Source: a virus. From it: DNA of 64,000 nt. The stretch spans positions 64,001 through 128,000 of the IMG/VR virus record IMGVR_UViG_3300020394_000003, one strand, 5' to 3'. The notes beneath the pieces are model-generated. The model was not told the origin of the DNA. It did no database searches and saw only the letters and a list, made by a program, of their open reading frames with translations. How positions within the stretch are numbered: the first letter of the stretch is position 1; every line of letters starts with the position of its first letter. Made by a program: the position numbers and the translations under genes. Below, piece by piece: positions 1,678 through 64,000 of the stretch.

Positions 1678-3483
1678 ATGTCAAAAGATAAAAGATTTAA
1701 CAGAAATATACGATACACAAACAGAGACTTTACATCTGTTAAAAATGATTTAGTAGAGCAGGCAAAGATTTACTACCCTGACACGTACAAGGACTTTAAT
1801 CAGGCTAGCTTTGGTTCAATGATGTTGGACTCAGTAGCATACGTTGCAGATCAGCTTAATTTTTATTTAGACTATCAGGCCAATGAAAGCTTTATTGATA
1901 CGGCTGTCGAATATGAGAATGTTGTAAGGCACGCTAAGAGTTTGGGATACAGATGGAAGGGCGCCCCTTCTAGCTTAGGCGTGATTTCCATGTATGTCAT
2001 TTGCCCCGCCGCAGGTCTCGGAATGGGAGTAGATTTAGATTATGTCCCAGTGCTAAAAGCCGGCGCCCAATTCACATCACAGTCGGGCGGCAGCTTTTTA
2101 TTAATGCAAGATGTGGATTTTTCTTTAAGTTCAAATGAAATCGTAGCTGCTAGAAAAGACTCCACAACAGGTTTACCTACACACTATGCGATCAAAGCAT
2201 ATGGTAAAGTCATTTCTGGCGAAATTATGAGAAAAACAGTTAATGTTGGCAGCTTTCAAAGATTTAGAAAAATTCAAGTAGGTTCGTTAAGTAACGTGTC
2301 GGAAATTTTACGTGTCACCGATGACGAAGGTCACGAATATCATCAAGTTGAATATCTATCACAAGACGTTATTTACAAAGAAGTTGTTAACAAAGATGCT
2401 CGCATCTCTGGGGTACCATCCGTGATGCGCCCTGTCTCTGTTCCTAGGAGATTTATTATTGAAACAGAAGGTAACGATCTCTATATTCAGTTTGGCCATG
2501 GCTCAGACTCAGAAGCAGCCTCTCCATCAGTGGTAGAACCTACAAACTTAACGCTGCAGCAGTTTGGAAGAAGCTATATTACGGATGAATCTTTTGATCC
2601 CAATAACTTATTATCAACGGATAAACTAGGAATTAGTCCGTCAAATACAAGAGTGTATGTGATTTATAGAATCAATAGTCAGACCACTGCAAATGCAGCA
2701 GTTGGAACAATAACAAAGGTTGGCAGCAACGAAATGTTATTTAGGGCCGAGCACGAACTGAGTCAAAAAAAGGTAAGGGAAGTAAGAAGATCTTTAGAGT
2801 CTTATAATGAAGAAGCAATCGTGGGGGCAATTACGCTTCCCGATACTGACGATATTAAAAGAATGGTGTACGATAACTTTGCAACTCAAAACAGGGCTGT
2901 CACAAAACAAGATTACTTATCACTAGCATATTCTATGGATCCAAAATTTGGCAAAATTAAACGATGTAACATCATGAGAGATCCTGATTCATTAAAAAGA
3001 AATTTAAATATGTATGTTTTAGCTGAAGCACCAAATGGAAAGTTATCGGTTGCAAATGACTCATTAAAAAGAAACTTAAAAACTTGGCTAAATCAATATA
3101 GGATGATCAATGATACAATTGATATTCTAGATGGAAAAATTTTAAATTTTAGAATTGATTTTGATGTTGTGGGGCACAGAGACTATAATAAGCACGATGT
3201 TTTAAATCAATGTGTAAAAGTGTTGAGAGATGAATTTGCACAACCAAAATATATGGGTGAACCATTTTATATTTCTGATATTCAGAATATGTTAAACGAT
3301 GTAGATGGTGTTACCGACGTTAAGATGGTTAAAGTTACATGCATGAATGGCGGAATTTATTCCGATTCTTTTCTTGACATAGCACAACAAAAGTCCGCAG
3401 ATGGAAGATATATCGTAATTCCAGAAAACTGCGCAGTAGAAATTAAATATCCAAGAAACGATATTGTGGGGACAATTACATAA
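1678..3483 (+). CDS. gp6: Baseplate wedge protein, T4 gp6 / baseplate J family
   Basis: N-terminal YTNRDFTSVKNDL...DFNQASFGSMMLD...ESFIDTA and C-terminal QNRAVTKQDY are characteristic of gp6; 601 aa; GGAG SD. Confidence 0.9.
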   Translation: MSKDKRFNRNIRYTNRDFTSVKNDLVEQAKIYYPDTYKDFNQASFGSMMLDSVAYVADQLNFYLDYQANESFIDTAVEYENVVRHAKSLGYRWKGAPSSLGVISMYVICPAAGLGMGVDLDYVPVLKAGAQFTSQSGGSFLLMQDVDFSLSSNEIVAARKDSTTGLPTHYAIKAYGKVISGEIMRKTVNVGSFQRFRKIQVGSLSNVSEILRVTDDEGHEYHQVEYLSQDVIYKEVVNKDARISGVPSVMRPVSVPRRFIIETEGNDLYIQFGHGSDSEAASPSVVEPTNLTLQQFGRSYITDESFDPNNLLSTDKLGISPSNTRVYVIYRINSQTTANAAVGTITKVGSNEMLFRAEHELSQKKVREVRRSLESYNEEAIVGAITLPDTDDIKRMVYDNFATQNRAVTKQDYLSLAYSMDPKFGKIKRCNIMRDPDSLKRNLNMYVLAEAPNGKLSVANDSLKRNLKTWLNQYRMINDTIDILDGKILNFRIDFDVVGHRDYNKHDVLNQCVKVLRDEFAQPKYMGEPFYISDIQNMLNDVDGVTDVKMVKVTCMNGGIYSDSFLDIAQQKSADGRYIVIPENCAVEIKYPRNDIVGTIT

Positions 3484-5027
3484 TGGCTGTTAAAAGATAT
3501 TGGGCATTGAAAGATAACACTATCACCAACGCCTACGAATCAAATTTACAATATCGAGCGACCGGCTCAAACATGGGCGGGTCAGATGTTCTTGAAGTAT
3601 TTAGTGTTTACCAGCAGGCAGGAACATCATCCTCAGATCAGGATGAGTTTGCAAGGATCCTAATTCAATTTCCAATTACAGGCTCAAACCTGCAAAATGA
3701 TTATACTTCAGTAAAAAGAGATCGAGTACTAGGGAATATTCCAGCTTCAGGAAGTGTAGAATTTTATCTTAAAATGTATAATGCACGCCATTCTTTAACC
3801 ACTCCCCGTGACTATAGTCTTGTAGTAGCTGCTCTTAACAAAGATTGGGATGAGGGCAGCGGTTTAGATATGGACAACTACACTGATGTTTTGTACGGCG
3901 ATATGAAGGGCTCTAACTGGATCTCATCTTCACTGGGAACAAAGTGGACATCAGCCGGCGGTGATTGGGATAACGATGATTCTCTAGGTGTAACCGCCTC
4001 TTTTTATACTGGCGTTGAAGATATGGAAGTTAATGTAACACCGCTTGTTGAAAACTGGATTGCAGGTACAAAGAACAACTATGGAGTAATTGTACGGCTA
4101 GCCCCCGATCTAGAGTCTGCAGAAAAATCATATTACACTAAGAAATTTTTTGGAAGAACATCTGAATTTTTCTTTAAAAGACCGGTATTGGAAGCTCGCT
4201 GGAATTCGGCCACTAGGGATGACAGAAATAATTTTTATTATAGCAGCTCAGTCGCTACATTATCAGACAATCTAAATACACTTTACTATTATAACTTTGT
4301 ACGCGGCCGCCTCCGAGCGATTCCACTCGATGCAGGCTCTGAAGTCGTAGTGAGTCTGTACACGGCTTCCCCAGATGGCACCCCAAGCGCCACGGATGGT
4401 AAAATCGCCCTCTCAAAGGGTGGAGGTGTCGTCGCTGCCGGTGATGTTAACGCAACCGCTAGCGTATCATCAACCGGAGTTTATACTGTATCATTATCTG
4501 CAACTGGTTCTAAAAGTTCGCATTCGACACTGTATGATGTGTGGCAAATTAGAAAAGCGACCGATCAGGGAGTAGATGGGTATACACAGATTTATACAGG
4601 AAGCATCAAGCCCAAATCGGATACTGGTGCGACGTGGAACAGAAATCGAACTTACGTTACAACTGTTCCAAATCTTAAGAAAACTTATCACAGAACAGAT
4701 ACAGACCGACTAAGACTTTACACTAGAGAAAAAGACTGGAGTCCAACTATTTATAATAAGGCAAACAATACGATTGAAAGATCAATCATCGAAAGTGGTT
4801 CATATAGAATTACAAGAAATATTGATAAACTAGTAGTACTACCATTTGGTACGGGATCTGAGATGCACACTCAAATGTCTTATGATGTTTCAGGCAATTA
4901 CTTTGACGTAGACTTTTCGATACTAGCATCGGGGTATTCTTACACAATGGACTTCAGTTTTTATGATGACTCAATAGGCGACTGGATAGTGCAGCCACAA
5001 AAGTTTAAGTTTAGAGTTGACGAATAG
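3483..5027 (+). CDS. Virion baseplate-associated protein with a DNRLRE/CBM96-like beta domain
   Basis: Motifs WDEGSG, WTSAGGDW, NVTPLVENW...NYGVIVRL...RPVLEARW; translationally coupled (TAATG) to gp6. Confidence 0.6.
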   Translation: MAVKRYWALKDNTITNAYESNLQYRATGSNMGGSDVLEVFSVYQQAGTSSSDQDEFARILIQFPITGSNLQNDYTSVKRDRVLGNIPASGSVEFYLKMYNARHSLTTPRDYSLVVAALNKDWDEGSGLDMDNYTDVLYGDMKGSNWISSSLGTKWTSAGGDWDNDDSLGVTASFYTGVEDMEVNVTPLVENWIAGTKNNYGVIVRLAPDLESAEKSYYTKKFFGRTSEFFFKRPVLEARWNSATRDDRNNFYYSSSVATLSDNLNTLYYYNFVRGRLRAIPLDAGSEVVVSLYTASPDGTPSATDGKIALSKGGGVVAAGDVNATASVSSTGVYTVSLSATGSKSSHSTLYDVWQIRKATDQGVDGYTQIYTGSIKPKSDTGATWNRNRTYVTTVPNLKKTYHRTDTDRLRLYTREKDWSPTIYNKANNTIERSIIESGSYRITRNIDKLVVLPFGTGSEMHTQMSYDVSGNYFDVDFSILASGYSYTMDFSFYDDSIGDWIVQPQKFKFRVDE

Positions 5028-5038: not shown

Positions 5039-8000
5039 ATGGCAATCAAAGATTTATTTGAGAAACCACAGCAAGTACTGAGTTCGGCAGATTCCGAAAA
5101 GACAACCAAAGGAAAGGTCGAATCAATCGACAACCTTGATGCAGTACTGCGTCAAAAAGAAGAGTTTGTTCCTTATATCGATCACTCCTCTGCATCTAAT
5201 TTCGCCATCTATGGCTCTGCTGAAAAATACTATGAAGATGCTTTCACGGCAATCTATCGACAATATCCTTATGACGGTTCCGCTCACGAAAAAAAAGAGT
5301 ACGAATTAAACATAAATTATCTAACAAGGTATATTCTAGATAACAAATATCCTAGAACAAATGGTTATATTACGCTAGGACTGAATAATACGTATTCGGG
5401 CCTATCAGGTTCATACGGCAATGTAGCCTCCAGCGAATATATTAAGGTTGTAGGGGGCCCGCACACAGCATCAAACCTTCAATATGATGTTGAGGGCATG
5501 ATTGGACGCCCTCTTTACGAAACTTTCAAATACTCAAATAAGCTTGCTTCTAATCCATATGAACTAGCTGGCTTAGCTAAGGGGCAAAACTTAGGCTCAC
5601 AGCTTTCAAACTTGAGGTTTAATGCCTCAGACGGAATGACTGTTGAATTCTGGCTTAAAAAGACTGCCTTTGATCCAACAAAGACCAAAAGAGAAGTTGT
5701 ATTTGATCTTTGGAATGGAAAAAATCATGTAGGGGCAGATCCTGATTTGTCATCTGGTAGATTTTTGATTGAGCTTTCTAGTAGTGACGGTGGCCCCTTT
5801 AGGCTTACATGTGTTTCTGGTTCTACTTCTTTGGCATCCGATCTTGCAATTTGTAGCACTAGTATAACCGGCGGCATAGTTGCCAACGGCGGCTGGAATC
5901 ATTATGCTGTGTCTCTTAAATCATATCCTTCTAGCAATGAGACATTGGTTAAGTTCTATGTCAATGGCGATTTGGATAAGCAGACAACAATTAGCGGCTA
6001 CATTAACGAAGTTACAGGCGGCTTAAACGCATACATTGGTGCCCTGCAAACAGGTACCGCTCTTGGCGGCGCCGCTGGTTACGGGCTGCTTAGTGCGTCT
6101 TTAGACGAGTTTCGATACTGGAAGGAGGCACGAACATCAGAGGATATTGGTAGAAACTGGTGGACTCAAGTAAATGGAGGATCAAATACTGAAACTGCAA
6201 ACACAAGCCTAGGTGTATATTATAAATTTAATGAAGGTATTGTACAAACCTCCGCTGCAGATACCGCTGGTTATGCTTTTGATAAAAAGATTTTGGACTA
6301 CTCTGGTCGCGTATCAAACGGAGTTTGGGTTGGGTACCCGGGCCTCCCACATCGTGCTAGAAGTACAAATTCGGCCATTGTGGAAGCGAATGTGGCAGCA
6401 ACAGAATTTAAAGACCCAATTCTATACAGTACACACACTAGAGTTAAAAATTTAAGAACCGAGCTGATGGCTAGCGGTTCGATGTGGGATGATGAAAATA
6501 ACGCATCACTGTTGAACGCACTGCCATCTTTTATGCGAGAAGAAGACGAAGAGATAGGGGACGGAACATTAACGAATACATTACAAATGATGGGTGCATA
6601 TTTCGACAAGATCCATCATTTAATTGATGCATTGCCAAAAGTTAGAGCTACATCGTATCTTACAGCATCAGCAAAGCCCTATCCTTTCGCCACTCATTTG
6701 CTGGAAAGTATTGGGTTAAACGCCCCTGAACTTTTTGTACAGGCGAATGTGCTAGAGTCGTTTGCTCAAAGAGATGAAGACCGTCCGTATACGCAAGATT
6801 TAACAGAGCTTAAAAATCTTATTTATCAAAACATTTACAATAACTTAACATACATTTACAAGTCCAAGGGTACTGAAAAGTCTATTCGAAATATTGTACG
6901 TTGTTTCGGAGTAGACGAAGAACTTATTCGACTTAATTTGTATTCTAGCAATTTAACTTATGAGTTAAAAGATAATACTAGAACTAAAACAGTAAAATCA
7001 AAATGTGTTAATTTTAATGACGTTGATAAATTTGACTCTACAATATATCAAGCGGCAGATCCTGACAATGCAAATACTTCGGCGTATATTACTGGATCCG
7101 GCCCGACAACAGTAACCGCATCTTTAGGTAAAGAAGATTTGCTTGGAATGACTGTGGAGGGAGAATTCATTTTCCCAATCAAGCTTACTAGGCGAGATTT
7201 CGGATATTTTGACACCCCATTTACAAAAGTGTCTCTATTTGGCATGCATACGCCAACAAAGAATGGTAATTCATTTGACACCAAAGACTATGCAAACTTC
7301 CAAGTTCAAGCTATAAAACCGAATGCAGAATCTAACCATGCATATTTTAAGCTTACCTCAAATTATGACCCGTACCCAATTCCAGAGCTAACATCCAGCT
7401 TGTTTAATGATGTATACGACAATCAAAGATGGAACCTATCTGTTAGAATTAAACCACTTGATCCCGTAACTAACTTTGTACAAGACAATCAGGTTGATAC
7501 AACGTTTAACCCGCTAGCAAGAATGTGCCAAAACTACGAAGTTCACTTTTATGGCGTGAACATGGAAACAGGATACCCAGAGCATACCTTCCACCTTTCG
7601 GGAACCATGGAGGCACATAAAGCTAGAGATTTTCTGAGAGCTTCAAAGAAAATCTATGCCGGTGCCCACAAACAAAACTTTAACGGCGCCACAATCGATC
7701 TCTCAGATGTTAAAGTATCGAACATTAAATACTGGGCAACTTGTTTAGATAATGAAGATTTACTAGCACATGCTAGCGATCCAGAAAATCACGGTGTTAC
7801 AGATCCATACAAGAATGTTGCTTTACAGGTTGCGAGCCTTAATAAATGGCACATTCCAAAAATTGATACTTTAGCCCTTAACTGGACATTTGAAAACTGT
7901 GTTGCACCATCTTCTGATGCAGGCGACCCATCAACTGACGACTCGTTTTTCTTCGTGGACGACATCTCATCGGGCTCGTCAGAAGCGGTTGCTTCCGCAA

Positions 8001-11000
8001 AGTATGGCTGGTTCAGCAACATTATTGATCAACAACACAGTGGAAAAGGAGACAGGTTCTTACCGCCAGAAAGTGGTGACAAAAATCCAATTGATGTAAA
8101 CTACATCTCTTCTGCCCGTCGTCAGTTACCAGAGGTTGTAAATACAAACGACGCTGTTCAGATTTTAAGACAAGATGATGATAAGTTTACTAGAGAACAC
8201 AGCATAGTACAGCACTATTATGCTATCGAAAAGAGCATGTACCAGACCATTTCTGAAGAAATGATTAATATGTTCGCATCAATTGTTGATTTTAATAACT
8301 TAATTGGTGAACCGGTAAACCGCTATCGACAAGAATATAAAGACCTAGGAAAGCTTAGGCAACTGTTCTTTGACAGAATTGGAAATACACCAAGTCTAGA
8401 TAAGTACGTTCAATTTTACAAATGGCTAGACTCAGCTGTCACCACTGTTATCCAAGAACTCATCCCAGCGTCAGCCGAAGTTGCTGCAGACCTACACAAT
8501 ATGGTCGAAAGTCATGTTCTTGAGAGAAATAAATACTGGACTAAGTTTCCTACGATTGAGTTCAAGCAAGATGATCCTGAAGCGGGCCTTCGCGGTGTCA
8601 TGGAGCTTACGTATGATTGGGAGCATGGCCATCATCCTGTAAATCAAAATCAGGCAAACAACGCTCTTTATTGGAAAGAGCGCGCAGAACGAGATGATTT
8701 CCCGCTGTCAGTGACAGCTTCCGTCGGCTCGCCATTCTTTCAATTAGATGGTAACCCAGTAGATGGTAACAAAAATACAATTCGTCGCACCCTAAACACT
8801 CACAGGGAGGCTAAGAAAAACTCTCTAGCAAGACCTGATGGTACTCTGTATGGAGGCCGTGAATACTCATTAAGAAAATTTACAAAGCCATACAAATTAG
8901 AAATGGACATGCCACTAGAAATAAAATCTGGCATCAATTTTGAAAAAAATAAAAATGTAGATATTGCGAAAAACCTTTTGCATCCAAACGCGCCGCTTAC
9001 AATAAGCTCATCGACTAACGGTCCACTAGCCGATTTACCAACAAATGTAATGTTTGTAGATGGTGACAATATTGATTCTTTTAAAGATGTTAGTGACGAT
9101 TTAGAACTGAACAAGGGCAAAAGAAAATATACTGGTACAGTTATTATGGGTCGAGAAAAAGAATTCGATCAGCACAATAATGAGACCTACGCAGAAACTA
9201 CATACGCAAAAGTACTACCAGCAACAATCGTATCCAGTTCGGTAGTAACAGGCTACAACAAGGTGTTCGCTGGTGTTGATGCTCCCGGGTTTGTTACCGG
9301 CGCTTCGATCACAAACATTCATCATGATTTTTATGGACAAGATCGAGAGATTCCGATGCAAGGTCCGTTCACAGAAAAATATGTAGGAGGACATCAATCT
9401 AGACACGTTCGCCTAAACCCCGGAACAGACGATTTCCAGAATAGGCCCGAGGCGTGGAGAATCCTAGTAGGAAAAGTCGTTCCCGGCTGCAGCCGTCAAG
9501 ATCCCGGTGCCTTTGGATTTGTGGGGCAAGATTACCCATATCCAGTTATTGGTAAAGAACCCATAGCTGCCACTGGAATAATTAATTGCCATATTGGTTC
9601 AGACTTGCCATTTTGCGATCCAGCAGATGGAGATACCATTACTATCAGTGATGGCAGGACCACATCAGTATTCGAATTTGATACTAACGGCTCCGTAGTG
9701 GCTGGAAATGTAACACTTGATATATCAGGAGTCAGTGGAGGTGCAAATAGTCGATCAAGACAGTATGCACAAATTCTTGCAAATGCTATCAATGCAGTAG
9801 CAGACTTACAAGTTCAAGCCACTGATAACGAACACACAATAACACTAGTTAACACATTATATGGTGCACCCTCTTCGAAAGCTTCGTTTTCTCTGGGAGC
9901 CAAGGGAAACGCTGCAATTGTAAAAACCCCCAAAAACAGCGGCGCAGGAATTGGCAGGTCTCACAGTGAAACAACTGTGTGGCGAGTAACTGGTATGGCC
10001 GGCGGACAAAACCCGGTTATTTTAAATCAAAAGCCGCCAAGAGCGGTCCGGTACCGAGAAGAATTGATCAAGCGACCAGTTAACTTTAAGAACATTAGGC
10101 AAACAACTGCCTCTGTCGACGTGGTTGTTGAGGCTTCAAGACAGCACGGCCCAATCGGGAACTATACACACAACTATGAAATTGTCCAATCTGCAGGTAG
10201 AACAACAAATGATCTAGATTTTAGAAAAACAAGCAGACTGGATCATCAAGATACAGCGCTAGCAAAAGGTGGTCAAGATATTGATGCTGTAACGTACAGC
10301 AGAAAACTTTTACAAAGAGAAATTACAAATGAAGACGAGCCGCAACATGCAGGCGGGAGCCTAGGAGATCCTAACTTCTGGCACAGGAATGCCCCGGGCG
10401 TAACGCACAGCACAAGAGACCTTTCGAAAAATCCTAGAAGAGGAAAAAACAAGACTGTAATTGTATCAAGATTTAGCGCACCGGGTGGCTACGAAAGCAT
10501 GTCTCGCGGATTTTTAGACCCAGCGCATGAAGAGCATTCACCATATGATGTAGTTACGTTCCGCAATAGAGCAGTTAGGGGAGAATTCCAATACATTGCT
10601 ACTAGCGGATCAGTACCAGAAAACTTTAAAGATACACTCTATCAAGACGGCTTGGATGCAACGACATTTAGAGTAGTAGATATTCACGGTGAACCGTGGG
10701 GCCTAAAGAGTCATCTTACTAGATACACTGCACCATATGGCAGAGATTCAGTGCTATCTCATGGCCCTCTTCAAGGTACCGAAGTGCTTGAAAATGAAAC
10801 TTTTTACCCGGGCTTTCATAAAGTACATCGCAATGGAGCTACTGCAAACGACTTTACTACAGATATTGATCGAGTAACACACACAACATACTACGGAGTT
10901 CCCATGAACCGCGGTATAGTGATGGCTTCCGATGTTGCAGGTTTCACTCCTTCTGCACCGGGCGGTACTAAAAACAGCTCGCGAGCCTTAAGATATGTCA

Positions 11001-37559: not shown

Positions 37560-37568
37560 AAATTACGT

Positions 37569-37576
37569 ACTATTTA
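37569..37576 (+). promoter_or_regulatory. Putative late promoter motif ACTATTTA
   Basis: Recurring motif 20 nt before ATG 37596, heading the terminase-portal operon. Confidence 0.6.
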
Positions 37577-37595
37577 TTAAAAGGAAAAAAATATT

Positions 37596-38141: not shown

Positions 38142-38155
38142 GACGATGATGATGC

Positions 38156-51884: not shown

Positions 51885-53480
51885 ATGGCTTATAAATTTC
51901 AATTAGGAAGCTTTACAGCTTCGGGCTCCATTAAGGTTGAGGATACGCTTGACGCGGCTTCAACTTTGCAAATTGGTGGAGTTGGGGTCACAGCAACCGC
52001 AGCTGAGATTAACCTCATTGATGGTGGTACCGCTCGCGGAACCACTGCTGTAGCATCCGGCGACGGATTCTTACACAATGATGCTGGAACCATGAGAATG
52101 ACTAGTGTCGATAAGATGGCGGATCTTTTCGCTGGAAACGCGCTATCAGCCTCTTCTGGTGTTCTCAGTGTTAAAGCTGATGACGCATCTTTGGAGATCA
52201 ACTCTGACGCACTTAGAGTTAAAGAAGGTGGTGTTACCAACGCAATGCTTGCTGGCTCTATTGCCAACGCTAAGCTTAGCAACAGTGCTATCACACTAAA
52301 CCCCGGTGCAGGATTAGGTGCATTGGGTTCTGTTTCACTCGGTGGTTCTATCAGTATTGCTGTTGACGGCGTTCTTGAGGACCTTGACACCCTTGGTGCT
52401 CCAAGCGCTGATGGTGAATTCCTTGTTGCTACAGGTGCTGGCGCTTTCGCTTACGAAAGTGGTGCAACTGCTCGTACTAGCATTGGTCTTGGTACCGGTG
52501 ATAACGCTCAGTTCAACGCCGTCATCATTGCTGATGACGCAGCATTTGGTGCAGTTGGTGATACCGACATGTTAACCATGGACGCTGGTAGTGACATCAC
52601 AGTTGCTGCCGATCTCGACTTTGTTATCGGAAAAGCAGGTGGTCTTACTCTTGCTGACGGTGCTGTCCAGTCAACCGCTGCAGAGCTTAACTTACTCGAC
52701 GGTGCAGGTGCCGGTTCTGTTGTCAACAACAAAGCTGTAATCTACAACGGCGGCGGTGTTGTTATCGGTCAGTCTCTCGCGACTGCTGATGATGGCCACC
52801 TCGGTAACCAAACAACCCCACAGATGATTCAGATGAAGGCTACTCGCGTTGAGTTCAACCAAGCTGTTGTGTTCAACGATGACATCTTCGTATCTGGCTC
52901 TACAGTGACAATGGATCAACAGCATCTTGTTATTCAAGATAAGCTTATTGGTCTTGGTTTCGTTTCTGGTTCTGTCACAGATGACAATGTTTCCGCCCCC
53001 GGCGACCGCGGATTTATCTTCGGTATGCACGGCGAAGACAACGTTGCTATGCACTGGGATGAAGGTTCGTCTAGATTCAAGTTTATCAAAACGGACTCAC
53101 TTCCTACCGCTACTACGGTTAACGAAGTTTCCAAGGCTGACCTTGAGGTTGGTGTGCTTCACGCTTCCAGCGTTGTCGCCCCGCTTTCACTCAGCATTGA
53201 TGCACAAGCTCAAGACGCAATTAACCTTTCTTCTGCTGCAGGTAAGGTTGTATACGTCACTGGCACCTTGGCCGCTAGCCGAAGCACTACGCTTCCAGCT
53301 GCGCCAAACGTCGGTGATCAAATTGATGTCAAGCTAGCTGCCACTGGTGGTAACTCACTTACAATCGAAAAGGGTGCCGATGGGCACAACATCGATGGTG
53401 GTGATTCAATCATCCTTGAGTCAGACTTCGCTGCTGTCAAGCTCGTTTACGTTGCTGCTAACACATGGAGAGTCTTCTAA
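51885..53480 (+). CDS. Probably abundant fibre protein (531 aa)
   Basis: TAAEINLIDG/TAAELNLLDG repeats, GGVTNAMLAGSIANAKL fibre motif, C-terminal TLPAAP...IDG...WRVF domain; codon bias similar to the major capsid gene. Confidence 0.65.
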   Translation: MAYKFQLGSFTASGSIKVEDTLDAASTLQIGGVGVTATAAEINLIDGGTARGTTAVASGDGFLHNDAGTMRMTSVDKMADLFAGNALSASSGVLSVKADDASLEINSDALRVKEGGVTNAMLAGSIANAKLSNSAITLNPGAGLGALGSVSLGGSISIAVDGVLEDLDTLGAPSADGEFLVATGAGAFAYESGATARTSIGLGTGDNAQFNAVIIADDAAFGAVGDTDMLTMDAGSDITVAADLDFVIGKAGGLTLADGAVQSTAAELNLLDGAGAGSVVNNKAVIYNGGGVVIGQSLATADDGHLGNQTTPQMIQMKATRVEFNQAVVFNDDIFVSGSTVTMDQQHLVIQDKLIGLGFVSGSVTDDNVSAPGDRGFIFGMHGEDNVAMHWDEGSSRFKFIKTDSLPTATTVNEVSKADLEVGVLHASSVVAPLSLSIDAQAQDAINLSSAAGKVVYVTGTLAASRSTTLPAAPNVGDQIDVKLAATGGNSLTIEKGADGHNIDGGDSIILESDFAAVKLVYVAANTWRVF

Positions 53481-53613: not shown

Positions 53614-55434
53614 ATGTCATATAACTTATTGTCGGGTAGCGTTGAATTTATTGGCGAAACCCTAGGTACCGCGGAAGACCTAGTTAACACGCACGCAACG
53701 CAAACAATTACTGGTGCGAAAACATTCACCAACCTCACGGCCTCATCTGAGGGCGATGGCACCGTTGGACTCACCGTAACAGGGGATCTAAATGTTTCTA
53801 ACGATCTTTCTGTTGCTGGTAACGATCTTACTTTGGCAGAGTATATCAAGCACATTGGTGACACAGACACGAACATACGTTTTCAAGATAATCGAATCGA
53901 TTTTACGGCCGGCAATAATGTTCTTCTAATGCTCGACTCGGCCGGAGGAACGATTGCAATCAACAACACAGCCGGTAACAGAAACTTTGTATTGAAAAGT
54001 GCAACTTCTAACCAAGGGATGTACCATTCAGCGGCCAACCGCTCATTTTTATTTGGAGATATAAACGTAGTGCCGCAAGATAGTGAAGCACTAGTTCACA
54101 TTACAAGCTCATACCATGAGCACTCGCTGCTTACAGTTGGAAATAAGAAAAACCCAATTTTTGCAATATCGGGCTCCACAGGAGATATCGGCCAAGGCCC
54201 AAGGGTTATAATTACAGGAAGTCTTCTTGTTGGCGGATCCGATGCTGGCTCTGTAGAAACTAGGTTCGCCGGCGGTAATGTTATTGCCGCTGGTATTGTC
54301 ACAGGGTCATACGGATTGAGGGGAGAGTTATTAAACGTCCATTCAGGATTAGAGCATGTCACTAATGGTGGTGAAAAGAAATTAGCTGTCAAGGCACACA
54401 CTGGCATTTCTGTTGATAATAACGGCGTTGCAGTCGATGTAAATGGATTAACAGATGTGGGCTCAATCAACACTAGTACTACCAATCAAGATTTCATATG
54501 TGTCTCAGATTATTCTAACAGTAATGCCACAGCAAAAATGGGCGTTGGTGACCTGCTGGCACAGACCGTTGGATCAGTAGCCAATGTGGGCTCAGGCACC
54601 GGCCAGATTTATAAGACAACACTCAGTAGAGAAGTTAAACTTAAAAGAATTGCCCAAGGTTCGAATATCACAGTTACCAATGGTGCAGATGATATTACTA
54701 TTGCCGCTACTGTTCCTACCGTCCCAATTACGACTTACAACTTTACCAATAACGAGCGACTGATTACATCAGTAAGCAATAATACTGTTAAAACAGAAGC
54801 CAACCTTCACTGGAACTCGGAGAGGCTAATGGTGACAGGCTCTGTTTCTGCTACACAAGAACTAACTGGATTCCAACTACAAGTTGGCAGTGAAGAGGCT
54901 GGAGATGATTGTATGGCAAAAATTAAGACAGAAGATGCCAACAAAACCCTCCTGTTATGTAAAAGTTCAGCACATGAAGTTATACTAGGTGTTACTGGCT
55001 CAAACAAGGTTGTGGTCGGTGGAGCCCACTTTGATGGGGTTTTTAACGTATCGGGCTCAAACAATGTCCATTTGATTTCGCTTAAATCTGATAGCGAAAA
55101 CCCAGCATTTTATGTAAGTGGCTCAGGTGATGCTGCTCTTTCTGGCAGATTGGCATTGAAATCCGACGGCACAGCAGATCCTACCGTATTAGCCAATCAT
55201 GCACACATATATGCAAAAGATGTAGCAACTTCAGCCGAGGTTTTTGTTCGTGATGAAGCTGGCAACATAACACAAATCTCGCCTCATAACGAGGAAGGCG
55301 AGTGGCAATACTTCTCTAGAAACACACGCACTGGCAAAGTTGTCAGGGTAAATATGGAAAGAATGATTAGAAAATTAGAACAAATTACTGGTGAGTCCTT
55401 TATGGAAGAATGGTATGAGGACCCTACCGATTAA
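53614..55434 (+). CDS. Fibre protein (606 aa) with a possible C-terminal chaperone-like domain
   Basis: TQTITGAKTF fibre motif, many xSGS/xTGS turns; C-terminal DEAGNITQISPH...VNMERMIRKLEQITGE. Confidence 0.6.
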   Translation: MSYNLLSGSVEFIGETLGTAEDLVNTHATQTITGAKTFTNLTASSEGDGTVGLTVTGDLNVSNDLSVAGNDLTLAEYIKHIGDTDTNIRFQDNRIDFTAGNNVLLMLDSAGGTIAINNTAGNRNFVLKSATSNQGMYHSAANRSFLFGDINVVPQDSEALVHITSSYHEHSLLTVGNKKNPIFAISGSTGDIGQGPRVIITGSLLVGGSDAGSVETRFAGGNVIAAGIVTGSYGLRGELLNVHSGLEHVTNGGEKKLAVKAHTGISVDNNGVAVDVNGLTDVGSINTSTTNQDFICVSDYSNSNATAKMGVGDLLAQTVGSVANVGSGTGQIYKTTLSREVKLKRIAQGSNITVTNGADDITIAATVPTVPITTYNFTNNERLITSVSNNTVKTEANLHWNSERLMVTGSVSATQELTGFQLQVGSEEAGDDCMAKIKTEDANKTLLLCKSSAHEVILGVTGSNKVVVGGAHFDGVFNVSGSNNVHLISLKSDSENPAFYVSGSGDAALSGRLALKSDGTADPTVLANHAHIYAKDVATSAEVFVRDEAGNITQISPHNEEGEWQYFSRNTRTGKVVRVNMERMIRKLEQITGESFMEEWYEDPTD

Positions 55435-55528: not shown

Positions 55529-56641
55529 ATGTCTTCACTGTTAGAACAGGCTATTATCGATGCCACTGCATTAAAAGAGGCTGCATTGAAAAATGCCGAA
55601 GCTGCCGTGCTAGAGAAATACGCACCAGAAGTAAAGAAAGCTGTCGAAGCTCTTTTGGAGCAACCCGAAGACCCAATGGCAGACCCAACAGCTGCCATGC
55701 CCGGTGCAATGGAAGAGCCCGCCGGCATGGAAACGGATGTTGAACCAGACCTAGCGGCCACAGAGGGAGAGGACATGTGCCCCTGCCCAGATGAAGAGGA
55801 AAGCACTGAAATGGTTATTGACTTTGATGAGCTATCTAGTTTTGTAAAAGGTGAGAAACCTGCCCAAGATCAACAAGATCTTGCAGCTGCCATGCCTCCC
55901 ATGCAAGAAGAGGTCGAGATTTCAGACGATTTGCTAGATAATATCTTAAGCGCTCTTACTGAAGAAAAAGGTGAGAAGGGAGATGCTGATCCTCTTGATG
56001 GCGAACGTGCTAAATTCGACAAGGACCACGATGGGGTTCCTGACGGAGCAGATAAAGATAAGGACGATCCTGATGTCAAGGAGTCCATTGATGAAGACGA
56101 GCTTACTGCCATGGTTGAAAAGATGGTGGTAGATATGGCTTCTAAGAAAACAGGGTGGCTAGGCGTTTCAGAGGGTGACATGGCCCACGAAGCTGAACTT
56201 GAACTAGCTCGCCGTCAATCAACAGAATTTAAAGAGGAAAACGAAGCTCTGAAGAAAGCTACTGCAGAATTGCAGGAAAAGCTTACTCGCTACGAAGATA
56301 CTCTAAACAAGTTAAAGAATAAATTAGATGAAACCAATCTTAATAATGCAAGATTGTTTTACGCGAACCGCGTTTTGAAAAGTGGCTCCTTGAATGAGCG
56401 GCAAAAAAATAAAGTTGTCAATGCTATTTCAAAGGCAGGTTCAGTTAAAGAAGCGAAGGTCATTTATGAAACCCTTCAAGACACAGTGGGCTCCACGCCG
56501 GATCGCCGCGGACCACAATCACTGCGTGAAGCTGTTACTAGACCCTCTTCTATTATGTCATTGCGAGAAAATCGTGACCGACATGAAAAAGCTGATCCAG
56601 TTTCTGAGAGAATGAAACTTCTCGCAGGTATTAAAAAATAA
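55529..56641 (+). CDS. Prohead scaffolding/core protein (gp22-like position)
   Basis: Acidic, coiled-coil, many L-x-E protease sites; ends RMKLLAGIKK; directly precedes the major capsid gene. Confidence 0.75.
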   Translation: MSSLLEQAIIDATALKEAALKNAEAAVLEKYAPEVKKAVEALLEQPEDPMADPTAAMPGAMEEPAGMETDVEPDLAATEGEDMCPCPDEEESTEMVIDFDELSSFVKGEKPAQDQQDLAAAMPPMQEEVEISDDLLDNILSALTEEKGEKGDADPLDGERAKFDKDHDGVPDGADKDKDDPDVKESIDEDELTAMVEKMVVDMASKKTGWLGVSEGDMAHEAELELARRQSTEFKEENEALKKATAELQEKLTRYEDTLNKLKNKLDETNLNNARLFYANRVLKSGSLNERQKNKVVNAISKAGSVKEAKVIYETLQDTVGSTPDRRGPQSLREAVTRPSSIMSLRENRDRHEKADPVSERMKLLAGIKK

Positions 56642-56667: not shown

Positions 56668-58503
56668 ATGTCTATTCTTAATAAACTTACTGAAGGCATT
56701 GTCGAGCGTGACCTCTCCCGAGAGTCACATGCGCTTCTCACCAAGTGGGAGCGTACAGGCCTTCTTGAAGGTTTGACCAACGACCGCGACCGTAACGCCA
56801 TGGCCCGTCTCTTAGAGAACCAAGCCAAGGAGCTACTTCGTGAGTCTACCAGCATGAGCGCTGGTGATGTTGAGGGTTTTGCCTCTGTTGCATTCCCCAT
56901 CGTCCGTCGCGTTTTTGCGGGACTCGTTGCTAACGAGCTAGTCTCTGTTCAGCCAATGAGCCTCCCATCTGGTCTCATCTTCTTCCTCGACTTCAAGTTC
57001 AGCCCCAACATTGCTGACGCAAACGACCTTTCGACTGATGTTCGTACTGATGGTCTTTTTGGACAATCTAACGACAAGTCGATCTATGGTACAGACAAGG
57101 TAGGTAGCCAGATCACTGGTGGTGTCAACCTAGTCGGAACTTACGGTGATGATCAGTCTGGTCCTCGTACAACCGTTGGTTACGCATATGGTAGCCCCTC
57201 TGGTTCTGCAATTCTCGACGCCGCGGATTCTGATGTAAACCATCACCACGTTCGCGCTTGCTTCGCACTTAACAACGTTACTGAAGCTCAGAAGAAACTG
57301 ATCATGTACGATCCCGATCTTCTTGCCCTTTCAGGCTCTGGCACAGCTGCTGCTGTTCTCGTTGTTTCGGTCGACAAGAGCATTCTCACTAGTTCTGCTG
57401 GTGCGGAAGCTGACTTCGATAACCTTGGAGCGTTTAGCCTTCATGATATCAACAACTTTACTCAAGTTGGTACCGGAGCTAGGCAGGTTCGTCGCCTTAC
57501 TCGTATGCAGGATTCCGACGAGACCACCACAGAACGTGTTCTTTTCACTGTCGTAGGTGCAAACGGCGCCGCTGGTGTTAACCAATCTGGCGTAGCTGCT
57601 TCCGGTTCTATTGTTGGCGGATCTGACGTTACTATCCGATTCCCAATCCGTGATCAGCTTACTGCTTCCGACGCCCTCGGCGCGGTTGTTGGTGCTACAC
57701 CTTGGGGACTTGAGAACGAAGCGTCGATTCCAGAAATCGACATTCAGGTTGACAGCATCGCTGTTACCGCACAGACCAAGAAGCTCAAGGCGAAGTGGAC
57801 CCCCGAACTCGGTCAGGACCTCAACGCTTATCACAACCTCGATGCTGAGGTTGAGCTTACCAGCATTCTCTCTGAGCAGATCGCTCTTGAGATTGATCGT
57901 GAGATCCTTGCTGACTTGGTTCGCGGCGCAACCGCTGCAACATACTACTGGTCACGTTCACCCGGTATGTTCCTGAACCGCGAAACTGGCCTTGAGGTTG
58001 GTGCTGCTTCTGCTGCCCCTGACTTCACCGGTACTGTTTCCGAGTGGTACGAGACTCTTGTCGAGACCATTAACGACGTATCTGCTCAGATCCATCGTAA
58101 GACTCTCCGTGGTGGAGCGAACTTCATTGTGTGTTCACCTGAAGCCGCTAACATCCTTGAGTTTACCGCTGGATTCCGTGCTAGCGTCACAGCCGATGAC
58201 GAGCGCGGCACCGTTGGTGCTGTCAAGGTTGGCTCCCTGTCCAAGAAGTGGGACATCCATGTGGATCCTTACTTCCCACGTCAGGTCATCCTTGTCGGTC
58301 GTAAGGGCGGATCATTCCTCGAAAGTGGATATGTGTATGCTCCATACGTCCCGCTGCAAGTCACTCCCACCATCTTTGGACCAGAGGACTTCGTGCCCCG
58401 TAAGGGCGTGATGACTCGTTACGCCAAGAAGATGGTGCGTCCTGATATGTATGGCTTAGTTGTCATCCGTGGAATGGTCGGAGAGTCTGGCGCTACTAGC
58501 TAA
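56668..58503 (+). CDS. gp23: Major capsid protein (T4 gp23-like)
   Basis: LLENQ, PIVRRVF...VSVQPMSLPSGLIF, KLKAKWTPELGQDL.AYH.LDAE.EL, EIDREI, YAPYVPL, GVMTRY; probable cleavage after LLRE (E59). Confidence 0.97.
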   Translation: MSILNKLTEGIVERDLSRESHALLTKWERTGLLEGLTNDRDRNAMARLLENQAKELLRESTSMSAGDVEGFASVAFPIVRRVFAGLVANELVSVQPMSLPSGLIFFLDFKFSPNIADANDLSTDVRTDGLFGQSNDKSIYGTDKVGSQITGGVNLVGTYGDDQSGPRTTVGYAYGSPSGSAILDAADSDVNHHHVRACFALNNVTEAQKKLIMYDPDLLALSGSGTAAAVLVVSVDKSILTSSAGAEADFDNLGAFSLHDINNFTQVGTGARQVRRLTRMQDSDETTTERVLFTVVGANGAAGVNQSGVAASGSIVGGSDVTIRFPIRDQLTASDALGAVVGATPWGLENEASIPEIDIQVDSIAVTAQTKKLKAKWTPELGQDLNAYHNLDAEVELTSILSEQIALEIDREILADLVRGATAATYYWSRSPGMFLNRETGLEVGAASAAPDFTGTVSEWYETLVETINDVSAQIHRKTLRGGANFIVCSPEAANILEFTAGFRASVTADDERGTVGAVKVGSLSKKWDIHVDPYFPRQVILVGRKGGSFLESGYVYAPYVPLQVTPTIFGPEDFVPRKGVMTRYAKKMVRPDMYGLVVIRGMVGESGATS

Positions 58504-58686: not shown

Positions 58687-59136
58687 ATGGGAAGTAAAAG
58701 AGTAGGACTCGCGAGAATGGAGTCTTTGGTTAAACAATTAAAAAGAGAATTGGCACTCGGCGCAAGCGCTGGTATTAAAATGGGAGCAGATGATTATCTT
58801 GTGCCCTGTTACCCTGATGCTGCATTTGAGGACGCCAGCGGATCAAATCCGGCTTTGTCAGTCGCATGCTATCACTCACGTTGGACAACAAGCGGTTCAA
58901 ATGATGATGCTACGTTGGCAGCCGGCACCGTGCTTGGTCAGATGAAAAAGATTACGCTGGTTTCCGATGGCGGTAATGGTACCGTCACAATCGCAGATCC
59001 GGTATCCGCTAGTTTGGACGTTATCTCGTTTCAAGACGTTGGTGATACAGCAGAGTTGATGTGGAATGGTTCAGCTTGGAGAATTATCTCCCTGCATAAT
59101 ACTGCTTCTGGAGATACTGGTCCAACCGTCGCCTAA
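58687..59136 (+). CDS. Putative capsid decoration/spike protein
   Basis: Own promoter and terminator right after the capsid gene; C-terminal beta domain (TLAAGT..GQMK.I...GDTAELMWNGSAW) resembles the fibre C-terminal domains upstream. Confidence 0.55.
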   Translation: MGSKRVGLARMESLVKQLKRELALGASAGIKMGADDYLVPCYPDAAFEDASGSNPALSVACYHSRWTTSGSNDDATLAAGTVLGQMKKITLVSDGGNGTVTIADPVSASLDVISFQDVGDTAELMWNGSAWRIISLHNTASGDTGPTVA

Positions 59137-59665: not shown

Positions 59666-60916
59666 ATGGCTTCACCAACTCTTACACCGTCGAGCAATAC
59701 TAGCGTATCGAGACTACCGCCCACTGGTACTTTGGGCGATGTAGCCTCGTCTTTACCATTTGGAATCTACTCATCAGAATCTGATTTTATTTCAGGAGCA
59801 GTAGATCAGGTGGCTTACACTTACAAAAAGCTTGGTGGTGATATTTTAGATATCGAACTTAAGGCGACGAATGTATATGCCAATTATGAAGAGGCCGTCC
59901 TTGAGTACTCATACATTATCAACACTCATCAGGCTAAAAACGTATTGTCCGATGTTTTAGGCGCTACCACTGGAACTTTTGACCATGACGGTAATTTGAA
60001 ATCAGGGCCAACCGGTGCAAACTTAAAGTTTCCTAGATTTGAATATGCATATGCAAAAAGAATTGCAGATGCTGCGTCTACAGAAGCAGGGGTCGGCGGC
60101 ATTCTGACAGAGTATTCTGCTAGCTTCCAGCTTACTGATGGTGTTCAGGACTATGACTTGCAGACCCTACTGTCTGAATCGGCCAGCGATTCAAGCTCAG
60201 CATTTAATGGCCTGATCAACGACAACAAAGTTCAGATTAGGAGAATCTATTACACCTCTCCTAGGGCAATGTGGAGATTTTATGGATATTACGGCGGTGT
60301 AAGTGTTGTGGGCAATATGAACACTTATGGCCAGTTTGCTGACGATTCAACGTTTGAAGTAATTCCAACTTGGCAGAACAAAATGCAGGCGATTCAGTAT
60401 GAAGACTCGATTTACACAAGAACCTCTCATTATTCATACGAAATTATTAACAATAAGCTAAGATTGTTTCCTGTTCCAACAACTGACTTTGGGCCTTCTA
60501 AAATGTGGGTTACGTTTACGGTCAAGAAAGACGTTTTTGAAGAATATAGCGATAGAAAATCCGGCATTGAAGGCGTAAACAACATGAACACCATGCCATT
60601 TGACAACATTCCGTATGCAAACATTAACGCAATCGGTAAACAGTGGATTCGTCGGTTCGCCTTGGCACTCTCCAAGGAGACATTGGCGCAGGTTCGTGGA
60701 AAATTTCAAACTGTTCCAATCCCGGGTGAAACAGTAACCTTAAATTCATCGGAACTAGCGAACCAAGCGCAAACAGAGCAGGAAAAATTAAGAACTGAAC
60801 TAATGCAATTGCTCGATCAAATGACATACTCTGCTCTCATGGAAGATGATCAGAAAATAGCCGATGCCGCCGCCGCAATCAATGCGACTGTGCCTTTAAA
60901 GATTTATGTGGGGTAG
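59666..60916 (+). CDS. gp13: Neck/head-tail adaptor protein (T4 gp13-like)
   Basis: KLGGDILDIEL, QDYDL, WIRRFALALSKETLAQVRGKF..P.PG..VTLN. Confidence 0.8.
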   Translation: MASPTLTPSSNTSVSRLPPTGTLGDVASSLPFGIYSSESDFISGAVDQVAYTYKKLGGDILDIELKATNVYANYEEAVLEYSYIINTHQAKNVLSDVLGATTGTFDHDGNLKSGPTGANLKFPRFEYAYAKRIADAASTEAGVGGILTEYSASFQLTDGVQDYDLQTLLSESASDSSSAFNGLINDNKVQIRRIYYTSPRAMWRFYGYYGGVSVVGNMNTYGQFADDSTFEVIPTWQNKMQAIQYEDSIYTRTSHYSYEIINNKLRLFPVPTTDFGPSKMWVTFTVKKDVFEEYSDRKSGIEGVNNMNTMPFDNIPYANINAIGKQWIRRFALALSKETLAQVRGKFQTVPIPGETVTLNSSELANQAQTEQEKLRTELMQLLDQMTYSALMEDDQKIADAAAAINATVPLKIYVG

Positions 60917-60920
60917 TTAG

Positions 60921-62349: not shown

Positions 62350-62372
62350 AATGGAGATTCAGCCAAACGGCT

Positions 62373-62380
62373 ACTATTTA
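62373..62380 (+). promoter_or_regulatory. Putative late promoter motif ACTATTTA
   Basis: Intergenic, before the tail sheath gene. Confidence 0.65.
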
Positions 62381-62451
62381 TTATACGACAAGGCTCGATA
62401 TGTGCAACACACATTGAATGAAGAATTTTAGTTTTAAGGAGTTAAACAAAT

Positions 62452-64000
62452 ATGTCTGTAAAGAAGTACAAATTCGTCTCCCCCGGTATTTTTATCAAGG
62501 AAGTCGATCAGTCATTTAGAACACCCGCAGCCCCACAGGTTGGGCCTGTAATTATTGGACGAACCCGAATGGGCCCCGCAATGCGCCCTGTCCGTGTCGA
62601 ATCGTTTGGAGATTTCGTCAAAACTTTCGGTAACCCAGTATCTGGATTTGCTGGTGGCGACCTATGGAGAGACGGAAACTTAGGTGGTCCGACCTATGCC
62701 GCATATGCAGCACAGGCCTACCTATCGGCACAAGTTGGCCCCGTAACAATGATGAGGCTACTAGGTGTTGAGCACGCTAACCAGTCTTCAAACGCTACCA
62801 AAGCCGGCTGGACCACTGATGCTACCCATAACGAGGACTACGCATCCAATGGTGGTGCTTATGGACTGTTCTTATTCAACTCTGGTTCCGGTGGAGACAG
62901 TGGGACAACTATCGGAGATGCAGGCGCAAACCCAGCGAAAGGTACTCTAGCTGCAGTTTGGTATCTCAACGAGGGAATGATTACCCTCAAGGGTGAAGGC
63001 CGCGAAAATAGAGATGGTACAATTACAGGCTCTGCAGGACTTCTTCGCACCAACTCATCAAACGTCGCAGATCACGAACTTCGTGCAGAAATTTACAACT
63101 CCTCTGGTGCCAAGGTCCATGAAACGAGCTTCAACTTTAACCGTTCATCCGACCTTTACATTCGTAAAGTGTTCAACACGAACCCGCAGAAGTTAAGTGG
63201 ATATGCTTATAGTGCCAGTGATCGCGAAACATATTTCCTAGGACAGACCTACGATCAAAGTGTCGCAACCACAATTACTGGCTCGTCAAACGCCCATAAC
63301 CTTGGAATGATCGCTGGCCTCAAGCTAGGCGGCGGCAGCACTGGTTATCACGACCAGAATTTTGCATATACTAACAGTAAGACCGGTTGGATCGTATCGC
63401 AAGATATGGGAACAGCTGCTAACTTTAGTGTTTCCGACAAGCAGAAGCTTTTCCGCCTTGTTGGTCTTGAAGGCGGAACCTCAGTTCAAAGAAGATTTAA
63501 GGTATCTATCGAAGATATTAAGGCTTCTTCAAATGAGGATGTTAACCCATACGGTACCTTCTCAGTTGTCCTTAGATCAATTAGCGATAGCGATAACAAT
63601 GTACAGGTCGTAGAAAGATATTCCGGCCTAAACCTCAACCCCCAGTCAGAAAATTACATCGCTAAACAAATTGGTGATTCCTTCATGACATGGGATGAGA
63701 CTGCTAGCCGATACCGCGAGTACGGTGATTTTGCTAACCGCTCAACCTATATTCGTGTTGAGATGTCTAGTGATGTCGAGAACGGTTCAACCGATCCAAG
63801 ATTACTACCATTCGGTGTAATCGGGCATCCTCGACCTATTAGTTTCCGACTTATCGGAGCAGATAGTAGCAATGGAGATACCCTTGCCCGCGCTGTGCTA
63901 GCAAGTGCAACAGCCTATTCTGGTTCTGTTCAGTCTGCAGCATATATTCTGGGACATAACAACATTCCACACTCCTTAGTCACTGGCTCAGGTCACGCAA
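62452..64000 (+). CDS. gp18: Tail sheath protein (T4 gp18-like), 3' truncated by the window edge; absent from the ORF track
   Basis: ATG 62452 after AAGGAG. It translates as MSVKKYKFVSPGIFIKEVDQS...VIIGRTRMGP...FVKTFGNP, the canonical sheath N-terminus, and appears open to the end of the window. Confidence 0.92.
   Translation, partial: MSVKKYKFVSPGIFIKEVDQSFRTPAAPQVGPVIIGRTRMGPAMRPVRVESFGDFVKTFGNPVSGFAGGDLWRDGNLGGPTYAAYAAQAYLSAQVGPVTMMRLLGVEHANQSSNATKAGWTTDATHNEDYASNGGAYGLFLFNSGSGGDSGTTIGDAGANPAKGTLAAVWYLNEGMITLKGEGRENRDGTITGSAGLLRTNSSNVADHELRAEIYNSSGAKVHETSFNFNRSSDLYIRKVFNTNPQKLSGYAYSASDRETYFLGQTYDQSVATTITGSSNAHNLGMIAGLKLGGGSTGYHDQNFAYTNSKTGWIVSQDMGTAANFSVSDKQKLFRLVGLEGGTSVQRRFKVSIEDIKASSNEDVNPYGTFSVVLRSISDSDNNVQVVERYSGLNLNPQSENYIAKQIGDSFMTWDETASRYREYGDFANRSTYIRVEMSSDVENGSTDPRLLPFGVIGHPRPISFRLIGADSSNGDTLARAVLASATAYSGSVQSAAYILGHNNIPHSLVTGSGHA

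Follow-up and report, generated by a model that had tools for sequence, protein, structure and literature searches.

Virion glycosylation by phage-encoded glycosyltransferases (GTs) has been reported for mycobacteriophages (Freeman et al. 2023, Cell Host Microbe, as cited in PMC12582341). The proposal is that soluble GTs encoded by the phage add sugars to its capsid and tail proteins while these are in the cytoplasm, either ahead of assembly or as it proceeds. Two bacterial systems offer further comparisons. For serine-rich-repeat adhesins, a GT-B complex, GtfA/GtfB, primes Ser/Thr in S-x-S contexts in the cytoplasm and variable GTs extend the glycan (PMC6973325). In the flagellin FlaA of C. 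jejuni, nonulosonic acids are O-linked at Ser343/345 of I-S-G-S-N and in S-S-G-S stretches (PMC4975691). Here we describe a tripeptide, [S/T]-G-S (written [ST]GS below), that is over-represented in the virion proteins of an uncultured phage (IMG/VR record IMGVR_UViG_3300020394_000003). The DNA analysed, referred to as the window, is a stretch of 64,000 nucleotides at positions 64001-128000 of the 161.7-kb genome, which is 89% complete. The explanation with the best support, to which we give even chances, is that [S/T]-[G/A]-S serves as an O-glycosylation sequon in loops exposed on capsid, sheath, neck, fibres and outer baseplate.

Almost all genes of the window share one strand. Pfam and PHROG matches, together with fold assignments, identify its content as the virion module of a distant T4-like myovirus. 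A preliminary description of this DNA had counted SGS and TGS by eye in outward-facing virion proteins and had suggested a modification that spans the virion. Its counts all reproduce: 7, 6, 6, 8 and 2 sites in the proteins that start at window positions 3483, 28460, 45586, 53614 and 58687, respectively (proteins are named by these positions below). The statistics, grammar and distribution of the motif that follow were computed directly, as were the presence and conservation of the enzymes.

Expected counts were derived from the amino-acid composition of each protein, and significance was measured with 500 shuffles per protein. The open reading frames (ORFs) of the window contain 71 [ST]GS sites (22.3 expected). 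Conversely, the 114 ORFs outside the window contain 15 (15.3 expected). The enrichment is confined to outward-facing virion proteins, as had been claimed. Motif-rich proteins exceed the expectation from their own composition by 5- to 10-fold. Because the motif had first been picked by eye, all 8000 tripeptides were scanned against per-protein composition. Among window proteins SGS ranks first (38 observed, 11.9 expected, p 1e-9), TGS second (33 and 10.4, p 2e-8) and TAS third (28 and 10.2, p 3e-6). The same scan outside the window gave no excess of similar size. Permuted controls (GS[ST], [ST]SG, S[ST]G and G[ST]S) have observed/expected ratios (O/E) near 1, with an overall range of 1.0-1.4. 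Composition and permutation controls had been named as checks at the outset, and the enrichment survives both. Local S/G/T-rich composition is ruled out as a cause by the per-protein shuffles and the permuted tripeptides. The over-representation of the motif is confirmed as real and robust.

The motif has a strict grammar. At position 1, S and T are equally accepted (O/E 3.2 and 3.0-3.2) and no other residue is. Position 2 prefers G (3.15), then A (1.8-2.0), and charged and large polar residues fall to 0.4-0.5. Position 3 takes S only; T reaches 1.25-1.37, N 0.65-0.97 and D 1.1-1.2. The motif is also directional, with TGS at 2.98 against 1.14 for its mirror SGT, and TAS at 1.50 against 0.94 for SAT. 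The preceding residue is mostly hydrophobic or proline. Other flanking positions carry little sequence information. Judged from these sequence statistics, the grammar resembles that of an enzyme site. Codons of the motif vary freely in the window genes, which indicates selection at the protein level and rules out a DNA-level repeat as the cause.

Could the counts be inflated by hidden repeats, undetected paralogous fibre or baseplate domains, or low-complexity patches rich in S, G and T? Proteins 46467 and 53614 and their relatives share an N-terminal M-x-Y-N-L-L-S-G-[ST] start, the pairs 45586/50606 and 26580/28460 share C-terminal domains, and shared ancestry inflates counts in relatives. 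We regard such an artefact as highly improbable. Permuted tripeptides of the same composition stay at background, the flanks are uninformative and the codons vary, and an excess is found in capsid, sheath, adaptor and fibre, which are unrelated folds. BLAST among the window proteins finds just the two paralogous pairs named above. Given this and the uninformative flanks, one repeat family does not account for the motif, and the earlier statement that it crosses unrelated proteins holds at the BLAST level.

The features of the window are collected in Table 1. Pfam and PHROG scans give next to no family matches for the motif-rich virion proteins. As previously stated, the gp6-like wedge, Mre11-Rad50 fusion, terminase and portal have no site. 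Likewise, the capsid sites (residues 178, 222 and 312) do all fall in the central insert, between conserved Gp23 segments 15-101 and 338-595. The sheath, for which T4 gp18 is the top fold match, had been credited with several sites. All eight lie within residues 144-616, which form outer inserts, and outside the conserved core (691-975). The setting of these sites was judged from predicted secondary structure and pLDDT in an AlphaFold model (pTM 0.77). Of the eight, six lie in coil and two at the edges of strands; loops modelled with low confidence hold three, and no site forms part of a two-residue hairpin. Structure mapping, another check proposed at the outset, thus places the sheath sites in loops and strand ends of the outer inserts, not in tight buried turns. 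The model of protein 45586 is confident only over the C-terminal 95 residues. Its N-terminal 190 amino acids do not fold as a monomer (pLDDT <50). Semi-conserved sites in this family are GPTGS, SGSTxFGN and TGSL.

Table 1. Features of the virion module and their [ST]GS sites. Positions are those of the window unless marked as genome positions; sites are given as observed versus expected where both are available.
Feature	Position	Strand	[ST]GS sites	Remarks
gp6-like wedge	1678		0	
514-aa virion protein	3483..5027	+	7 vs 0.86	0/500 shuffles; adjoins gp6-like wedge gene; no Pfam/PHROG family
4317-aa giant virion-module protein	5039..17992	+	9 vs 4.64	baseplate/tail module; mild excess, shuffle p 0.04
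393-aa protein	26580..27761	+	4 vs 0.70	p 0.008; C-terminal paralogue of 28460
422-aa protein	28460..29728	+	6 vs 0.74	0/500 shuffles
Mre11-Rad50 fusion	32728		0	
Terminase	38156		0	
Portal	39745		0	
Prohead protease	43826		0	
284-aa fibre-like protein	45586..46440	+	6 vs 0.61	
1379-aa fibre-like protein	46467..50606	+	9 vs 2.89	0/500 shuffles; three sites within first 23 residues
531-aa fibre-like protein	51885..53480	+	3 vs 0.92	
606-aa fibre-like protein	53614..55434	+	8 vs 1.11	0/500 shuffles
370-aa protein	55529..56641	+		directly upstream of capsid gene; scaffold-like by position only; contrast case
Major capsid protein	56668..58503	+	3 vs 0.72	gp23 family (Gp23 237 bits); large central insert
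149-aa protein	58687..59136	+	2 vs 0.31	p 0.03; downstream of capsid gene
416-aa head-tail adaptor-like protein	59666..60916	+	0	phrog_211
Tail sheath, 984 aa	62452..64000	+	5 in window, 8 in full protein	runs beyond window
Tail tube	genome 129472-130137		0	directly after sheath

For uncultured relatives, the motif was followed in 80 loci surrounding the capsid gene; their counts share ancestry. SGS (646 observed, 197 expected) and TGS (510 and 171) are again the two most enriched tripeptides, and the O/E per locus is mostly 2-4.5, compared with 1.13 for permuted controls. In the two weakest relatives, G of the motif is partly replaced by A. Within orthologue families, O/E stays at 3.7-6.6 while many sites turn over. 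For the capsid (O/E 3.7), 37 motif columns occur across 80 proteins; site 178 has the motif in 65 of the 80, with exchange of S/T and of G/A. The 29 sheaths have 51 motif columns, and site 616 keeps the motif, again with S/T and G/A exchange, in 26 of the sheaths. In the 45586 family, O/E is 6.0 over 18 sequences. The adaptor-like family (59666) has 131 sites in 57 orthologues (25.4 expected) although this phage's copy has none; the 45179 family, too, is enriched in relatives and has no site here. On sequence comparison, turnover of sites at constant density appears to follow the pattern of viral glycan shields. Other families are depleted: the scaffold-like family (55529) has 2 sites in 37 orthologues (6.9 expected) and the tail tube family none in 34 (6.5 expected). 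Since these orthologues share ancestry, their depletion is suggestive and does not give a clean probability. An earlier candidate for the tube, protein 60921, was rejected because it resembles neither the Mel-JY01 nor the RM378 tube. As an internal control, 331,000 amino acids from the clade's GT regions described below, mostly from non-virion genes, give 1.14 for [ST]GS; TGS and TAS are low (0.76 and 0.66) in the clade's non-virion proteins. Both are also rarer than expected in T4 virion proteins (TGS 2 against 7.7; TAS 1 against 7.1). Ordinary proteins therefore contain fewer of these tripeptides than expected, which puts the true fold-enrichment in the virion proteins nearer 4 than 3.

The capsid has its nearest cultured relatives in Flavobacterium phage immuto (48% identity), Rhodothermus phage RM378 and Microcystis phage Mel-JY01; uncultured relatives with 60-70% capsid identity number in the hundreds in IMG/VR. 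The cultured phages share the bias, more weakly than the 80 uncultured relatives. The whole RM378 genome has 52 [ST]GS sites (19.4 expected), with TGS and SGS ranked 4th and 5th and the sites clustered in an unannotated block at 64.8-76 kb. For immuto the figures are 36 and 15.3, and for Mel-JY01 19 and 9.0, with 4 sites against 0.95 in its sheath. The immuto sites include a concentration in one 373-aa protein (NC_055915.1 135075-136196; L081:28174-29295), with 12 sites against 1.26 expected. Conversely, T4 virion proteins contain 12 sites (15.3 expected), with none in the sheath, capsid or gp5/6/7/10/12. P-HM2 has 18 (11.6 expected), a weak and non-significant excess of 1.5x, and none in its sheath. 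The motif is therefore not a product of the T4-type folds, and the bias is a property of a single lineage. In a separate observation, TLS, TFS, TVS and TIS are also among the ten most over-represented tripeptides of the RM378 genome (L090-L092). This suggests, on sequence counts, a broader T-x-S pattern in this phage of a thermophile.

The main rival of glycosylation is a structural motif, specific to the lineage and unmodified. According to this explanation [S/T]-G-S ends a β-strand and opens an exposed loop, as an ST-turn or strand cap, and accumulates because the outer domains and fibre shafts of these phages evolve by inserting such loops. The sites indeed mostly follow a hydrophobic strand residue at strand-to-loop transitions. 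Several are position-conserved (capsid 178, sheath 616 and some in the 45586 family), five of the six 45586 sites fall where the protein behaves like a shaft of three intertwined chains, and the T-[LFVI]-S pattern over-used by RM378 is a β-strand pattern. Proteins of the same fold nevertheless do without the motif in T4 (sheath and capsid) and P-HM2 (sheath). A generic turn, such as the type II' β-hairpin turn (G-[NSTD]), would bring G-N, G-D and G-T with it, yet these, as given above for position 3, fall far short of the 3.15 for G-S; it would also be less directional than TGS at 3.0 against SGT at 1.1. Furthermore, A can stand in for G in the same alignment columns, which does not suit a glycine turn with positive phi, and no sheath site is in a two-residue hairpin. 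Nor does this explanation predict depletion in the tube and scaffold-like families. We consider it rather unlikely, though well ahead of an artefact.

If [S/T]-[G/A]-S is a glycosylation sequon, an enzyme is required. Pfam scans locate a glycan island at genome 36.1-53.3 kb, ~11 kb upstream of the window. It contains three tandem GT4s above the Pfam cut-off (48, 31 and 37 bits), of which GT4_1 (genome 36134-37411) and GT4_2 (37412-38731) lie side by side at 36.1-38.7 kb. It also encodes NeuB (263.5 bits), a CMP-sugar cytidylyltransferase (CTP_transf_3, 44.5 bits), a weak MptE-like/DUF115 match (PF01973, 23.4 bits against a cut-off of 34.6), a weak CST-I-like match and several weak GT2-like proteins. 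A methyltransferase, a sulfotransferase, a PhyH-type dioxygenase, a HAD protein, a nucleotidyltransferase and a cupin of the mannose-6-phosphate-isomerase type complete the set. No flippase or polymerase signature occurs among the island proteins with Pfam matches, and the Pfam scans found no secretion genes in the island.

We surveyed the GT4 locus in 73 related loci. GT4_1 and GT4_2 are both present in all 73 and are adjacent in 69. The median identity of GT4_1 is 60%, like that of the capsid, and that of GT4_2 is 42%. The EX7E and R-K signatures are kept in 23/23 GT4_1 sequences and mostly kept in GT4_2. Conversely, this phage's genes downstream of the pair recur in 0-7 of the 73, and NeuB, the cytidylyltransferase and the MptE-like gene in only 6-7. 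One complete relative (G003) has a bias of 2.55 with only two GT4s and a GT2, and no NeuB or MptE-like homologue was found in it. NeuB/Maf-like genes were hence ruled out as a partner that accompanies the motif everywhere. In a set of 50,697 phage records, homologues over the full length of GT4_1 occur essentially only in the nearest relatives by capsid (immuto, Mel-JY01, LR756508 and RM378); immuto, Mel-JY01 and RM378 show the bias. As a separate observation, the GT4_2 orthologue is ~690 aa instead of ~420 aa in a sizeable minority of loci (L101:8272-10347, L105:6394-8466, L117:8251-10284, L128:8236-10353 and others); the extra C-terminal part is possibly the third GT or another domain.

A structural model of GT4_1 with GT4_2 scored 0.87, while the best of three controls scored 0.00. 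Of 80 solved complexes, 58 attain the mark used for such scores, as do 2 of 110 mismatched pairs; we supplied our own alignments, so that these benchmark counts hold only roughly. At least 92% of contacts are shared between runs, and the partner pLDDT is at least 88. The model supports, but does not show, that GT4_1 and GT4_2 form a heterodimer.

This arrangement resembles the adhesin system most closely in architecture. By analogy, the conserved two-protein primer and variable extenders of GtfA/GtfB match the invariant GT4_1/GT4_2 and their variable cargo. There are four differences. First, DUF1975, the defining domain that mediates GtfA-GtfB and acceptor contacts, was not found in GT4_1 or GT4_2, where Pfam (E up to 0.01) reports only Glycos_transf_1-type families. 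Second, both phage GT4s keep catalytic-type residues whereas GtfB is a non-catalytic chaperone. Third, the predicted phage interface uses the C-terminal tail of GT4_1. Fourth, the GtfA/GtfB acceptor is a long alternating-serine repeat exported via accessory Sec, and here the sites are isolated tripeptides in folded proteins. Flagellin glycosylation (Maf-type, with pseudaminic or legionaminic acid) appears closest in acceptor context. There the O-linkage is made in the cytoplasm, to the outward face of a filament protein that assembles itself, and this phage has NeuB, a CMP-sugar synthetase and the MptE-like/DUF115 match below cut-off. However, NeuB/Maf-like genes are sporadic in the relatives while the motif bias is clade-wide. 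Nonulosonic acid therefore cannot be the universal first sugar. The mycobacteriophage system, as outlined in the source above, would be closest in kind. It belongs to actinobacterial siphoviruses, not marine T4-like myoviruses, its structural proteins are unrelated, and the system proposed here is a prediction from sequence. We know of no short sequon spread over many virion proteins in the mycobacteriophage work. We do not assign the phage system to any of these families; it would work most like them.

Phage GTs may instead act on DNA. GT clusters can glycosylate hydroxymethyl-cytosine in phage DNA (bioRxiv 10.1101/2023.12.21.572611). Such DNA-hypermodifying clusters, and also the T4 α/β-glucosyltransferases, are phage-encoded, sometimes adjoin structural genes and have GTs related to cell-envelope enzymes, all as here. 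Unlike the present island, they depend on a hydroxymethyl-pyrimidine, which either a hydroxymethylase or a methylase together with TET provides. No match to PF00303 (thymidylate-synthase-type hydroxymethylase) or PF00145 (C5-methylase) was found in the genome, within its 89% completeness. PF12851 (TET/JBP) also had no match, which is weak evidence as this search rang in no control genome. Digested immuto DNA contains only dA, dC, dT and fdPreQ1, which replaces dG, and no glycosylated nucleoside (PMC10516641). Hence the conserved GT4 of immuto appears not to glycosylate DNA there. Modification of DNA would, moreover, leave the protein motif unexplained.

A further explanation is that a partner other than a GT reads the motif. 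This could be another modifying enzyme (for phosphorylation, acylation or the like), a protein that decorates or cements the particle, an assembly chaperone or a host ligand, and the glycan island would then have a different job, such as remodelling the host envelope during infection. An enzyme-like grammar and restriction to surfaces would suit any sequence-reading partner, and nothing links the GT4 pair physically to the virion proteins. The rarity of NeuB-type islands (6-7 of 73 relatives) and the LR756508 exception fit as well. However, no kinase or other protein-modifying enzyme was found in the window and the 36-53 kb island (the rest of the genome was not scanned), and the island's lack of a flippase or polymerase signature in Pfam argues for a cytoplasmic acceptor. 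The GT4 pair are also the only clade-invariant, lineage-restricted modifying enzymes identified. We judge a non-GT partner to be unlikely, about half as probable as the structural motif.

Several observations weigh against glycosylation by the GT4 pair. Strongly position-conserved sites, such as capsid 178, sheath 616 and several in the 45586 family, are expected of structural residues. One relative (G001, L065) has the GT4s and a weak [ST]GS bias that is partly swapped for [ST]AS. LR756508 has a GT4_1 homologue (29% identity), yet 10 sites against 8.5 expected around its capsid gene. LR756511, which lacks the GT4, has no bias near its capsid gene either. The comparison of the two does not support a strict link of GT4 and motif; both were sampled within 20 kb of the capsid gene (40 kb of 484-595 kb genomes), which may miss tail genes. 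Tetrasphaera phage TJE1, with a weak GT4 match, showed no bias and is uninformative as an independent lineage. As the association falls largely within one lineage, it is close to a single observation. The preliminary description had asked whether enrichment tracks particular GTs across related phages. Bias and GT4_1 occur together within the clade and in three cultured relatives; as a general rule, the association is limited by that single lineage and by LR756508. The neighbourhood of the pair points elsewhere, since a PD-(D/E)XK nuclease gene (G000 genome 35352-36119; L082:53-820) precedes it in 71 of the 73 loci and gives it a DNA-metabolism context. Sequence searches of solved structures with GT4_1 and GT4_2 return generic GT4s only (BshA, MshA, PBCV-1 B736L and WbaZ); the nearest, BshA and MshA, are small-molecule GT4s and uninformative on the acceptor. 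The complex score may reflect a general likeness of the model to GT-B dimers.

The glycosylation mechanism that we propose would run as follows. A soluble GT4_1/GT4_2 heterodimer would work in the cytoplasm of the infected cell and put the first sugar or sugars on a Ser/Thr hydroxyl of the motif. Position 1 would be the likeliest acceptor because S and T exchange freely there. The variable downstream genes would then extend and tailor the glycan. In this phage, the tailoring set would comprise the third GT4, the weak GT2-like proteins, and NeuB with the CMP-sugar synthetase, which would supply a nonulosonic acid; methyl-, sulfo- and hydroxylating enzymes might tailor it further. Selection would keep the motif on outward surfaces and remove it from buried or interface-rich proteins. 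The preliminary description had placed the modifying enzyme outside the window, and the GT4 pair provides a candidate for it. The modification itself, namely that the GT4 enzymes act on virion proteins, and do so at the motif, is what we infer.

Four further features of the genome were seen. Otherwise dissimilar fibre-like proteins share the N-terminus M-x-Y-N-L/V-L-S-G-S/T-V/I, in the window (46467-46540 and 53614-53680) and in loci of relatives (L062:1179-2384, L058:3227-4222 and L005:2952-3944). It is possibly an attachment or adaptor segment that docks different fibres at one site. In protein 45586 and its 17 orthologues the stretch S-G-S-T-x-F-G-N-x-x-D-D-x-H-x-x-T-G-S is conserved, its G, D and H invariably so, and two motif sites lie within it. 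The stretch belongs to the part that fails to fold as a monomer and resembles a metal- or trimer-forming motif of fibres. A giant ORF of 2523 aa, with its end at window 1191, has no motif site. A cysteine-dioxygenase-like cupin (phrog_7851) and a RuvC-like resolvase are encoded at 29738-30687, between virion genes and the Mre11-Rad50 fusion.

In the literature, we found no publication describing the [ST]-G-S motif, and chemically documented virion glycosylation by phage-encoded enzymes only for mycobacteriophages. A short O-glycosylation sequon across a phage particle is not known to have been described. It is possible, although we consider the full proposal less likely than not, that a large aquatic T4-like lineage has its own O-glycosylation system, in which a tripeptide sequon, a heterodimeric GT4 primer and a hypervariable glycan-diversifying cassette give each strain a specific sugar coat. 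If so, the outward-facing virion proteins of an abundant lineage would almost all be coated, in the manner of an O-antigen or a viral glycan shield. With three relatives in culture (immuto, RM378 and Mel-JY01), the sequon idea is directly testable. Should the motif prove to be a sequon, glycoengineering might profit from a system that is compact, soluble and sequon-directed. It would become possible to read glycosylation sites from the sequences of thousands of uncultured marine phages, and the sugar-gene islands of many marine phages would gain a function. The implied glycan coat could alter how particles adsorb, stick, are grazed and decay, and how host defences recognise them.

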